From IMG/VR virus record IMGVR_UViG_2700989507_000003: a stretch of DNA of 8,771 nucleotides. One strand, 5' to 3'. The notes beneath the pieces were generated by a model. That model was not told where the DNA came from and ran no database searches. It saw only the letters and a list, made by a program, of their open reading frames with translations. Shown here one piece after another: positions 1 to 3,593 of this stretch. Source of the DNA: a virus (taxonomy: Duplodnaviria > Heunggongvirae > Uroviricota > Caudoviricetes). The position numbers were made by a program, and so were the translations under genes. Positions within the stretch are counted from its first letter, which is position 1. The number at the start of each line of letters is the position of its first letter.

Positions 1-2677
1 CCTTCAGCATGTACAGCGCAGCCAGGTCATCATTTGTGTCCTTCTGCACGCGCTGTATCTGCTGAATGGTGGCGCTCTGGTCTTCCAGCGTTTTACTGAC
101 CGTCTGTGTGATTTCATTGCGGGTTTCTGTGATGGTGGTCTGCATTTCCGCCATCTCGTCCTTCAGCTGACTGTTGTCAATCTCTGCCCACAGCGCCTCT
201 GCCAGATGCGTTTTTCCTATCTTTTCCCGGAAAAGTTCCAGATAGCCCGCAGCATCATTGCTCGCCCGTCCACTGGCTTCCACAAAAGCAGATTTACCCA
301 CCAGGTTGACGCTGCGCACATAAAACCAGAAATCCTTTCCGGGCTTAATGTGCGGACCGGAGACACTCCACTGACTGCCGGTCCCCAGATAACGGGCAGA
401 GGTTTCCACCTGTGCGGCGTCTGCAATTTTTGCCTCCGAAAACCAGAACTCAAACTGCACCGTCGGGTCATAAATGGTCAGTTTCGGGACTGCCGTTATC
501 TGAAAATACCCCGGCGTCAGTTCAACACCGGCAGGCGCTGCCGGTGCGTTAATCCGGAAGGTGGTGGTGGCCGGTTCGCCCTGCTGGCCATAACTGTTAA
601 TTGCCCTGACTGTCAGGGTGTATTCCCCGAGCGGCAGACCACTGAAACGATGCTCTGTATCCGCAGTGATGGCGGTGGTCACCAGACGGCTGTCTTCTCC
701 GCTTCCGCTGGTCAGGCGCAGACTGAAGCGCACACCCTTCACCACCCGCGGCGTGTCCCATTTCGCCTGTGCCAGATACTGACCGTCAGCCGCGCTCACC
801 TCCACCGTCAGGTGCTGCACTGCCGGTGGAATAACGCTGTTCAGGGTGCCTGACTGCGGCTCAAAGCTGGCCCCGTTATCCACGATGGCTTCTTTTTCCG
901 GTACGTGCTGCACCGCCGTGATGGCAAAGGTGCCGTCCGTGTTTTCCCGGATGGAGACACAGCGGAACAGGCGACGACGCAGTGACGGCAGGGAGAGTCC
1001 CCATACACCGTATGTCTCCACACCATCAGGCAGGGTGCTGACCTGTATCCGGTCCGGCGCGGGGTGTGCGGTGATGTCCACACTCACCGGCTTACCGCTG
1101 CCGTTAATCAGGTTCACCGTGGCGGCACCTGTCTCCGGCAGGGTCACCTCACGGTCCAGTGTCAGGGTGCGGCTGGCGGCATCGATGGACAGGATACGTC
1201 CGCCGGTCAGGGTCCCGGCATAGTCGTTATCACAGATTTCAATAATGTCACCGGGTGTGTGACGCAGCCCCTGTGACCCGAGCGTGAAATCCACCGTCTG
1301 CGTTTCCAGCAGTCCGGTCTTTATCACCCACAGCCCGGCACGGTGGGCCTGACCGCGACTGGTGCAGCCGAACGCATCCATCTTCAGCAGGTTGCGCCCG
1401 TAGCGCAGTATGGCTTCCGGGTCTTCCACCAGTTCCGTGGAGGTCTGCCAGCCGTTCTGCGGGTCGGTGTAATTCACCTCCACCGCCGTGTGGCGGTCCT
1501 TCAGGGCGCTGAAGCTGTAGCGAAACCCCACGCCGTTATCATCCACCACCACATCGCAGTTGGTGTACGGCCACACCACATCCGACGGGCGGTCCTGAAC
1601 GAACGTCAGCGTCTGGCCGTTCCATACCGGCATACAGCGCATCGCCGAGCAGAAATCACTGAGAACGTCCCACGCCTTACGCTGTTGTGACAGGTACGCA
1701 TTAAAGGTCATCCGCGGCTCTGTCCCTCCGAAGCCGTCCGGGACACGCTGGTCACAGTACTGCCCGATGGCATACAGCGCCCACTTGTCCACATCCGCGG
1801 CCCCCAGGCGTTTTCCCATGCCGTAGCGCGGGTGAGTCAGCATGTCCCACAGGCACCAGGCCGGGTTGTTGCTGTATGCCGGTTTCAGGCTGCCGTCCCA
1901 GATGCCGCTGTACGTGCGTTTTTCCGGGTCATAGTTTGACGGTACCTGAATGATGCGACCGCGGATATGGTAGTTCACCGTCATCTGCTGACCGCCAAAC
2001 TGCTCCGCATCCACCTGCAGCCCCACAATCGCCGTGTTCGGGTAGCACTGTTTCACATCGATGATTTCGGTGTATGACGACCAGAGCGTCTTATTCTGCA
2101 GCTGGTCCGTGGTGCTGTCCGCCGTCTCCCTGACCATCCGGATGTTAAAGGGGCGGGGAGGCAGATTATCCAGAATCACCGACGCCAGGTACTGTGAGGT
2201 GGTCTTGCCGTTAATGGTGACATCCTTTTCCGTCACCCAGTTACCGTTACGCTGCAACTGAATCAGCAGTCGGACAGAAGAGGGATTACGGTCGCCCTTT
2301 GAGGTGGTCTCCAACAGTGACTGCACCCCGAAGGTGACCCGCAGGCGGTCAATGTTCGCGGACGTAATGGTGCGCGTCACCGGCTTTGCTTTCGTCACTT
2401 CCACGCCCAGTGCGGTTTCCGCCCCGGAGGACTCAAAGCCTTCAGGTGGTGTCTGCTCCTGCTCCCCGGCGCGCCAGACCGCTGTCACACCATGTATCAC
2501 AGGATTACCGTCCGTGTCCGTCAGCGGGGTTTTGTTCACCAGAATACTCTGCAGCCCCTTCACCGGACCTTCAATCGGCCCTTCACCAATCGCATCAATC
2601 ACGCTCATCATCTGCGTGGACTTAAGATTGTCCTTTGCCTCAACCGGCGTGTGCGCCTTGCCGCCACCTTTGCCCAT
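1..2677 (-). CDS. J: Host-specificity / central tail fibre protein J, 5' portion (about 892 codons); 3' end lies beyond the window start
   Basis: ATG at 2677..2675 preceded by AAAGGGTGAGACA. Hand translation gives [39 protein letters not shown] at the N-terminus, [19 protein letters not shown] around 1800-1860, and [19 protein letters not shown] at the window edge, all in the same phase. The ORF track shows no stop-terminated minus ORF in this phase, consistent with an open frame running off the window. The N-terminal two thirds match my recollection of lambda gpJ, and the gene sits immediately downstream of I. Confidence 0.9.
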
Positions 2678-2710
2678 TGTCTCACCCTTTACTGTGATCA
2701 CTGTTACGCA

Positions 2711-2742
2711 CAAAAACAACAGGCATCCCGGAGGATGCCTGT
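2711..2742 (-). terminator. Intrinsic-terminator-like hairpin on the operon strand, about 35 nt upstream of the J start
   Basis: Perfect 10-bp inverted repeat ACAGGCATCC / GGATGCCTGT (2719-2728 and 2733-2742) with a 4-nt loop. On the minus strand it is followed by TGTTTTTGTG (2718..2709), and on the plus strand it is preceded by an A-tract. Read directly from the sequence; function not demonstrated. Confidence 0.4.
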
Positions 2743-2876
2743 ATCATGACTGAATAAAAATTCTGAATATCTTCACATTTTCTGTACGCCCCCGTGGCAG
2801 ATATCATTCCCGGGCGTTACAGTTTTTTCGGGCCAATAAAAACAAAACTCCCTGTGGTTAATCTTCATTTTCTGTT

Positions 2877-2907
2877 CCCGCAGCCTTCGGTCACTGCGGG
2901 ATTTTTT
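2877..2907 (+). terminator. Intrinsic-terminator-like hairpin oriented on the plus strand (antisense to the tail operon), abutting the I stop codon
   Basis: 7-bp stem CCCGCAG (2877-2883) / CTGCGGG (2894-2900) with a 10-nt loop, followed on the plus strand by A then TTTTTT CGC TTTT (2901-2914). On the minus strand the hairpin is followed by AACAGAAAATG, so it is not terminator-like in the operon direction. Confidence 0.4.
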
Positions 2908-2912
2908 CGCTT

Positions 2913-3593
2913 TTATGCCTGCCGCCCGATAACCACCACCTTCCCGTCACCGCCTTCATCACGGGTACTGATGTCCTGGGAGATTCGCCGTGAGCCAACC
3001 AGCATTTCACCGTAAGGCACCGGCATCGGGTTCCCCTGTGCAATCATGTTATCCAGCGAGGAAAAGTACGTGTTCTGTCTGCCGTTATCCGTGCTTTTGT
3101 ACTCCGGTACTTTAGCCTTCGGGGCCAGCATCTGAGCCACACCACCCAGTATCATGCTGGCCCCCAGTGAAAACAGCATCGTGGTGGCAGAAAAACCACC
3201 GGCTGCCAGGGCTGAACCCCATAACGCCATCGTTGCGCCGGCGGTGAAGAAAGAGCCCACGATGGCTGCCGCCCCCAGCACAATCTGCAGTCCACCCTTT
3301 CCGGCCCCGGCCAGTCGCGGCACAATGTGGATGACCGTTCCCTCACCCAGCTGTTCGTGAAGACGGGCGTACACCGCCTCCGGTGCCGTGTCATCACCGG
3401 CAATACGTATCTGGTACCAGCCTTCGTTCATCTGACGGCGGAATCCGGGCACCTGTAACGACAGCGCCCGGATGGCTTCCGCTGCCGTGTTCACATACAG
3501 GCTGAGGCGGCGGCCAAATCGTTGTAAATCCCCGTGAAGGCAGATGCGTGCCAGTGGCGGTGACGCCAGACAGAATGCGTTCGTCGTTGCCAT
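2913..3593 (-). CDS. I: Tail assembly protein I (226 aa)
   Basis: ORF-track ORF 2913..3593(-). Protein MATTNAFCLASPPLARICLHGDLQRFGRR...QNTYFSSLDNMIAQGN...VVVIGRQA matches my recollection of lambda gpI (223 aa) along its length. Start lies inside the 3' end of K (103-nt overlap), similar to the K/I overlap in lambda. Stop TAA at 2915..2913. Confidence 0.9.
   Translation of the reverse strand: MATTNAFCLASPPLARICLHGDLQRFGRRLSLYVNTAAEAIRALSLQVPGFRRQMNEGWYQIRIAGDDTAPEAVYARLHEQLGEGTVIHIVPRLAGAGKGGLQIVLGAAAIVGSFFTAGATMALWGSALAAGGFSATTMLFSLGASMILGGVAQMLAPKAKVPEYKSTDNGRQNTYFSSLDNMIAQGNPMPVPYGEMLVGSRRISQDISTRDEGGDGKVVVIGRQA

Follow-up and report, generated by a model that had tools for sequence, protein, structure and literature searches.

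A probable PasB/EcOnc22-24-type small RNA gene in the I-J tail gene spacer of a lambdoid Escherichia coli prophage

In enterohemorrhagic and enteropathogenic Escherichia coli (EHEC and EPEC), the small RNAs (sRNAs) carried by prophages link phage cargo with the regulation of the host and of virulence. The described sRNAs closest to the element considered here, a 235-nt spacer between the tail genes I and J in an 8,771-nt stretch of the IMG/VR virus record IMGVR_UViG_2700989507_000003 (the whole stretch is hereafter called the window), are PasB and the trio EcOnc22, EcOnc23 and EcOnc24. PasB is one of five prophage sRNAs found by RNA interaction by ligation and sequencing (RIL-seq) in EPEC E2348/69 (Pearl Mizrahi et al. 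2021, PMC8550237); it was mapped as an 83-nt RNA at NC_011601.1 1466343..1466261 (minus strand), with E2348C_1436 and E2348C_1437 on either side, and was probed on northern blots with AATCCCGCAGTGATCGCGGAGCT (Table S6, PMC8550237). In the same study PasB had 37 RIL-seq interactions, dropped sharply in Δhfq (log2 fold change of −6.8 with an adjusted P of 2e-40, and of −2.4) and reached a higher level in overnight static lysogeny broth (LB) than in Dulbecco's modified Eagle medium (DMEM) (PMC8550237). A later study located its seed directly before the terminator (Zhu, Shabalina & Storz 2026, bioRxiv 10.64898/2026.05.13.724894). EcOnc22, EcOnc23 and EcOnc24 are homologous Hfq cross-linking and cDNA analysis (Hfq-CRAC) peaks on the plus strand of the Sakai prophages Sp15, Sp14 and Sp11, respectively (Tree et al. 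2014, PMC4104026, Table S2), and EcOnc22 gives a northern band of ~85 nt and is destabilized in Δhfq (PMC4104026).

Our reading of the window, to which we assign a probability of roughly 0.8, is that the spacer is a self-contained non-coding moron carrying an sRNA gene of the PasB/EcOnc22-24 family in the I-J slot of a Shiga toxin (Stx)-phage-like E. coli prophage, plus a separate J-proximal element that is most likely a terminator. Homology, position, strand, the terminator, the −10 hexamer, the pattern of conservation and the non-conservation of open reading frames (ORFs) are shown here directly; expression, RNA size, Hfq dependence and RIL-seq partners are known from other alleles. The features are as follows.

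2678-2912: I-J intergenic spacer (235 nt on the ORF map), used by lambdoid prophages as a cargo slot
2814-2907, plus strand, antisense to the tail operon: predicted Hfq-type sRNA of ~94 nt, an allele of PasB/EcOnc22-24 (covariance model; 5′ end predicted)
2762-2777, plus strand: invariant palindromic box TCTGA-N6-TCACA of the CRP/FNR type, a putative activator site
2802-2807, plus strand: −10 hexamer TATCAT, aligned with TATAAT in E2348/69 and AATAAT in Sp15
2846-2868, plus strand: conserved single-stranded core and likely seed, consisting of AACTCC (2846-2851) and TTAATCTTCAT (2858-2868)
2876-2907, plus strand: Rho-independent terminator of the sRNA, with stem-loop 2876-2901 and U-tract 2902-2907 (T6)
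2744-2761: conserved block TCATGACTGAATAAAAAT, with the box on one side and the J-proximal hairpin on the other (alignments of eleven spacers and of 84 variants)
2710-2742, minus strand (that of the tail genes): J-proximal terminator-like element, with hairpin 2742-2719 and T-tract TGTTTTTGT (2718-2710), 33 nt upstream of the J start codon
2773-2868, minus strand: 31-codon ORF, read here as not a gene, its ATG being the complement of the sRNA seed
2682-2807, minus strand: 41-codon ORF, read here as not a gene, starting in a variable region
2913-3593, minus strand: tail assembly protein I (Pfam PF06805 Lambda_tail_I, E = 5.6e-16)
1-2677, minus strand: 5′ part of J, the tip attachment/host specificity protein (Pfam GpJ domains, E = 1e-37 to 1e-42), which runs off the window

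The identity of the sRNA is supported by homology and position together. A covariance model (R1) built from 16 other alleles, none of them of the window type, matched the window at 2814-2908 on the plus strand over its full length (64.7 bits, E = 1.1e-10, model positions 1-95/95), and the predicted sRNA was 76.5% identical to E2348/69 PasB and 73.5% identical to the Sakai Sp15 allele. The window plus strand aligned with PasB throughout (terminator, seed, −10 and box), and the PasB northern probe AATCCCGCAGTGATCGCGGAGCT covers the stem homologous to the window terminator. In E2348/69 (prophage PP6), E2348C_1436 is I (ending at 1466255) and E2348C_1437 is J (starting at 1466496), both on the plus strand; PasB, on the minus strand between them, thus occupies the I-J spacer in antisense orientation, and its terminator adjoins the I stop. 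The window has the same arrangement, with the sRNA on the plus strand between I (which ends at 2913) and J (which starts at 2677) and its terminator beside the I stop, and the layout is common to the window, PP6 and Sakai Sp11, Sp14 and Sp15. The window allele is like PasB in slot, antisense strand, terminator core, seed, position of the −10 and upstream box, and unlike it in the 5′ half, the terminator loop, TATCAT in place of TATAAT and the lack of the TTCACA −35. The preliminary description of the spacer had offered the end of an antisense transcript as one explanation for its layout, and for the I-proximal hairpin this was essentially correct, that hairpin being the terminator of a PasB/EcOnc22-24-type sRNA. 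Megablast with PasB as query found no match in the window, while blastn with a word size of 11 did, suggesting that published distribution counts are too low; surveys run with default BLAST settings probably did not count the window allele.

Relating EcOnc22-24 to the sRNA body within the slot required a correction of coordinates. Tree et al. used an older Sakai record (NC_002695.1), and the shift to NC_002695.2 is about +138 bp, as measured on AsxR (+135 to +139, at 1.27 Mb), AgvB1 (+137 to +146, at 1.94 Mb) and an STnc100-type sRNA (+99 to +227, at 3.49 Mb); PasA/EcOnc51 was ambiguous as a landmark. The offset holds at least from 1.27 to 1.94 Mb and is consistent up to 3.49 Mb. With it applied, the EcOnc22 Hfq peak covers the predicted sRNA body up to the terminator loop. 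EcOnc22, EcOnc23 and EcOnc24 all fall in I-J spacers with minus-strand tail genes. Placed uncorrected on the current Sakai RefSeq record, the old EcOnc coordinates put the peaks on the wrong features; an assignment of EcOnc22-24 to the J-proximal hairpin, which the coordinates give at face value, was rejected on the basis of the measured shift. Hfq-CRAC reads in the Sakai I-J spacers are biased ~100-fold to one strand (21,000-33,000 versus 100-390). The window allele is like EcOnc22-24 in being antisense in the I-J spacer and in lacking a −35 while keeping the box and a near-consensus −10, and unlike them in sequence, at the identity given above for Sp15. From these comparisons, made after the +138-bp correction, we infer that PasB, EcOnc22-24 and the window allele belong to one family. 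The link between PasB and EcOnc22-24 is made in neither of the two Pas papers (Table S6 of the 2021 study has no note of an EHEC homologue, and “EcOnc” is absent from the 2026 text). AgvB and AsxR were rejected as the identity of the window sRNA, as they sit at the PR′ moron site and not in the tail module. In the Rfam scans, STnc100 and AgvB matches lie back to back on opposite strands at that PR′ site (L007:428-682 in Sp10; L008:587-839 in Sp17); these are the convergent sRNA pairs of Tree et al. (PMC4104026) and serve here as coordinate landmarks.

To follow the spacer across alleles, eleven reference spacers were aligned, and 84 distinct variants were recovered from IMG/VR and reference prophages by the pattern of the box. 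All 84 variants share one order along the sRNA strand, namely J start, hairpin, conserved block, box, 24 nt of variable sequence, −10, G, body and terminator; the box, −10, seed and terminator are kept, and the sequence between them varies freely. A simple scanner found three terminator-like sites in 2400-3200, versus 0.8 expected by chance; on the plus strand it gave only a shorter alternative stem (2896-2910). The claim that terminator-like hairpins with T-tracts lie on opposite strands at both ends of the spacer was upheld by folding, both for the J-proximal hairpin (10 bp of which six are GC, a 4-nt loop, −19.3 kcal/mol, z = −7.0) and for the plus-strand hairpin next to I (−14.0 kcal/mol, z = −3.6). 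Across 46 distinct alleles the 7-bp core of the latter (CCCGCAG/CUGCGGG) is paired in 96-100%, and one variant shows a compensatory change of G-C to A-U; in the window the stem is followed by a tract of six U, where a 3′ terminator serving as an Hfq-binding module has at least five. Upstream of it, the AACTCC and TTAATCTTCAT columns are invariant or nearly so in the eleven-spacer, covariance-model and 46-allele alignments and are unpaired in the consensus fold, as expected of a single-stranded seed. The window U-tract can also pair over a long range with ACAGAAAA farther upstream, but other alleles do not keep this pairing, and it was rejected.

The preliminary description had found no convincing promoter on either strand. 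For the window allele this stands as far as a canonical scan for −35 and −10 elements goes, but TATCAT (2802-2807) aligns with the TATAAT of E2348/69, which at the homologous place has a promoter matching the sigma-70 consensus at 11 of 12 positions (TTCACA-16-TATAAT). Among the 84 variants the −10 hexamer is TATAAT in 38, AATAAT in 21 and TATCAT in 14, and an invariant G lying 7 nt downstream (2814 in the window) is the predicted transcription start. The canonical sigma-70 scan was equally negative, with no −35, for the Sp15 allele; that allele is northern positive, and its expression without a −35, an element that the window also lacks, points to an activator-dependent promoter. The box is the candidate activator site. 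It differs among alleles at the N6 positions only, always lies 24 nt upstream of the −10 and is repeated with the −10 and terminator as a unit in tandem arrays (L018, L059, L073 and L093). Its presence before each tandem copy indicates that it belongs to the sRNA gene and not to J. In the window the box (TCTGAATATCTTCACA) matches the CRP core TGTGA-N6-TCACA at nine of 10 positions; two such matches occurred window-wide versus 0.39 expected, a count reached in 9 of 200 shuffles and not significant alone. Higher PasB levels in LB than in DMEM would fit regulation by CRP. The center of a class II CRP site is expected at −41.5 from the start (or, for other sites, at −61.5 or −71.5). A CRP class II promoter was rejected on these grounds, the motif being good and the spacing wrong, and the box was kept as a putative activator site.

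Under the proposed reading, the gene would consist of the box, the −10, a start at G2814, a body of ~94 nt and the terminator abutting the I stop. The body would be largely unstructured; its 5′ part is U rich, its linker A rich, and its conserved core is AACUCC...UUAAUCUUCAU. By homology with the alleles that have been studied, the sRNA is expected to be made in the lysogen from its own promoter, independently of the Q-dependent late operon, to be stabilized by Hfq and to base-pair in trans with host and prophage mRNAs. The J-proximal hairpin (2742-2710) would stop transcription that is not Q modified before it reaches J in the lysogen, and Q-modified polymerase would read through it in lytic growth.

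Several observations weigh against this reading. The expression data come from other alleles only, and these share just 73-77% identity with the window allele. The family has no model in Rfam 15, a scan of the whole window at E values up to 1 gave no Rfam match, and the E2348/69 and Sp15 spacers gave none at the gathering score. That the dominant column in Table S1B of Tree et al. is the antisense strand follows only by inference from Table S2. In the window the −10 has one mismatch and no −35 is recognizable; RNA-seq coverage puts the estimated 5′ end of PasB ~15 nt farther downstream than the −10 would predict, which makes the true 5′ end uncertain; and the center of the box, near −44.5 relative to the predicted start, is not where CRP or FNR canonically activates. 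Lastly, the terminator role of the J-proximal hairpin is drawn from sequence only, and other sequence replaces the hairpin in slots of the PPompW/Sp12 type and the sodC type.

Comparison of the slot across phages is consistent with autonomous cargo. As the preliminary description had stated, the spacer is long relative to lambda (235 nt on the ORF map versus an I-J gap of 60 nt) and AT rich at its center (40-47% GC at 2700-2899 versus 52-65% in the flanks), within a minus-strand lambdoid tail module that runs H, M, L, K, I and then J. A spacer present universally between I and J homologues would have spoken against an insertion; it was found in 147 phage records, versus 257 with an I homologue of ≥60% identity (1,725 with any I homologue), and is thus far from universal. 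Almost all of the 147 are Stx-converting or related E. coli phages, with spacer identities falling in bands from >99% down to ~74%, and window-type spacers occur in 690 of 5,426 complete E. coli genomes (median of three copies per carrier genome). One of these genomes is E. coli O26:H11 11368, in which NC_013361.1 1212648-1212882 matches the spacer at 99.6% identity. No database record carrying the spacer has any annotation under it. The suggestion of a moron-like insertion was therefore right about how the slot behaves (conserved neighbors, absence from relatives such as lambda, lower GC content, its own terminator and putative promoter, and sodC in the same place in Sp10), but the cargo is a non-coding RNA and not a protein, and no ORF is kept in frame across alleles. 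In the first of these respects the locus resembles protein morons (sodC in Sp10; lom and bor of lambda), which are prophage-expressed, lower-GC cassettes with autonomous promoter and terminator between conserved late genes and absent from close relatives; unlike them, it holds no conserved ORF. It also resembles AgvB and AsxR (Rfam RF02702 and RF02703), Hfq-binding prophage sRNAs with their own promoter and terminator, antisense or convergent in a cargo slot and expressed in lysogens. Unlike the window sRNA, these anti-sRNAs occupy a slot downstream of Q/PR′ in EHEC, are 54-60 nt long and are unrelated in sequence.

Other occupants of the slot vary in kind and number. In Sakai Sp10 it is filled by the Cu/Zn superoxide dismutase moron sodC (ECs_1989; NC_002695.2 1963484-1964334; L159:18485-19335), in exactly the same slot and the same orientation, antisense to the tail genes, as the window sRNA. 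A PasB-like body and terminator follow directly behind the sodC terminator, with box and −10 lost, and could be a 3′-untranslated-region (UTR) sRNA or a relic. The Sp12 slot of Sakai carries an E2348/69-like PasB. In some IMG/VR prophage contigs the I-J slot holds a tandem series of PasB-like sRNA genes, every copy having a box, −10 and terminator of its own (three copies at L059:4300-5110; two each at L018:9750-10350, L073:3950-4550 and L093:7220-7820), and one tandem paralogue has a differing body (..CCUCCUUAAGGUGACUAUUCG..) and terminator (CUCCCG...CGGGAG). Sp12 (L160:13393-13733) and PPompW (L014) also represent a longer variant of the slot, of 341-342 nt, in which ~140 nt of unrelated sequence replaces the J-proximal hairpin. 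This replacement holds a hairpin of its own (CCCCGGTATC...GATACCGGGG), which is flanked on either side by T-rich runs and may be a bidirectional terminator.

Unlike the sRNA module, the J-proximal hairpin occurs once per slot, beside J, and is not repeated along with the tandem sRNA genes; likewise, the block at 2744-2761 is found only beside J. On the tail-gene strand alone the hairpin has a T-tract. In the window its GC-rich stem is directly followed by UGUUUUUGU, as in an intrinsic terminator, and the E2348/69 and Sp15 alleles likewise have a stem followed by a U-rich tract. A T-A to C-G compensatory stem pair separates alleles, and of the eleven variants of the stem, six reach full pairing on the tail-gene strand alone (by G·U), one on the other strand alone and four on both alike. 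This asymmetry and the compensatory pair favor a role at the RNA level on the I-to-J transcript. We regard the hairpin as probably an intrinsic terminator that insulates J in lysogens; a stabilizer in the 5′ UTR or a minor sense sRNA is possible. The preliminary description had proposed a structured element modulating J, and that idea may hold for this hairpin only.

Extended to the spacer as a whole, the same idea would make it mainly a cis-acting leader of J, a 5′ UTR tuning translation or mRNA stability, or would have the antisense RNA act chiefly in cis via RNase III cleavage. A hairpin in the mRNA 33 nt before the J ATG, conserved with compensatory changes, fits the former, and the perfect complementarity of the sRNA to the late transcript fits the latter. 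We nevertheless find it unlikely, given that lambda and many other phages bearing I and J do without these elements, that tandem duplication of the sRNA module and its displacement by sodC take no account of J, and that PasB has dozens of partners in trans by RIL-seq. It is a similarly tentative idea that the slot is a two-part regulatory unit, in which a box-driven antisense RNA responsive to host signals also acts in cis on late I-J transcripts and, together with a sense terminator, keeps J and the downstream lom, tail-fiber and effector genes off in lysogens, or in which the sense hairpin is a second sRNA. If either were true, the tandem arrays of two to three diverged sRNA genes would mark a hotspot where prophages evolve new seeds.

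The second-sRNA idea, taken alone, holds that the J-proximal hairpin, with the 18 conserved nt on its 5′ side, makes up an sRNA on the tail-gene strand, either an I-derived 3′ end or transcribed from a weak promoter of its own, with a short seed and terminator as in AgvB and AsxR. The hairpin with its U-tract is a classical Hfq-binding 3′ module, the G·U asymmetry fits a function at the level of the RNA from that strand, the neighboring block 2744-2761 is kept across alleles, and the filter used by Tree et al. would discard peaks on the sense strand within 100 bp of a coding sequence. No conserved promoter was recognizable on the tail-gene strand in scans or in several alleles inspected by eye, however, and no such RNA is listed in the EPEC RIL-seq tables examined. 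Minor-strand Hfq-CRAC reads in the Sakai I-J spacers amount to ~1% of the major strand, and this strong one-strand bias argues against an abundant Hfq-bound sense sRNA. We judge a second sRNA here to be quite improbable.

A further reading, that the spacer is a decaying and functionless remnant of a larger moron such as sodC, draws on Sp10, with sodC in the same slot and a promoterless PasB-like body downstream, and on the weakened −10 and absent −35 of the window allele. It is difficult to reconcile with 84 variants in which box, −10, seed and terminator are kept while the intervening sequence varies, or with related alleles that are demonstrably expressed and Hfq bound, and we consider it very doubtful.

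The two small minus-strand ORFs reported earlier are present at 2773-2868 (31 amino acids [aa]) and 2682-2807 (41 aa), the one correction being that the TGA of the longer (2684-2682) ends 4 nt before the J ATG and not 8 nt. Counterparts of the shorter ORF in other alleles are 22, 31, 32 or 39 aa long, in shifting frames and with unrelated C-termini, and JLK-2012 has none; the longer has no counterpart in the other alleles examined, where only ORFs of 19-28 aa overlap its 3′ part. The MKIN start common to the shorter ORFs is the reverse complement of the conserved sRNA sequence UUAAUCUUCAU (ATGAAGATTAA gives MKIN). Since the frame is not conserved, being shifted by indels between alleles, a protein-coding reading was rejected, and on this alignment the small ORFs are by-products of the sRNA sequence. 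That one of them encodes a micro-protein moron is exceedingly improbable: although several alleles have an ATG-started ORF that opens with MKIN or MKIS, and a 32-aa hypothetical protein is annotated at this place in PhiR12_4, the conserved first codons are complementary to the seed and are preceded by no Shine-Dalgarno sequence, the sequence before the ATG is tied up in the complement of the terminator (−17.4 kcal/mol), and the strand that holds the ORF, that of the late operon, is almost silent in lysogens.

The window sRNA is thus a diverged, unannotated allele of a known class of prophage sRNA, and the spacer is largely explained by what was already described; the finding overturns nothing known. 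What is new is incremental, namely the equation of PasB with EcOnc22-24, the common promoter box, the tandem arrays and the strand-specific conservation of the J-proximal hairpin. A single family in one slot of the tail module, with a common promoter box and seed, would unify the EPEC and EHEC nomenclature, and the alignment is ready for an Rfam model that would end the annotation of such loci as empty spacers or spurious small ORFs.

Two further points concern the neighboring gene and the wider set of contigs. Over ~100 nt (3491-3593), the longest ORF for I (226 aa, with its ATG at 3593) runs into the end of the K-like ORF upstream, and annotations of the I start disagree, its E2348/69 homologue being 582 nt in RefSeq (a later start) versus a 681-nt long form in the annotation of the RIL-seq paper. 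A scan of contigs with the 3′ half of the sRNA gave 22 matches, 20 of which were unrelated terminators and two true. The two true PasB-type loci, both with the box, are on tiny contigs assigned to Parendozoicomonas haliclonae (L142, 460 nt) and Streptomyces flavalbus (L148, 3,408 nt), and most likely represent contamination of those assemblies by E. coli phage.

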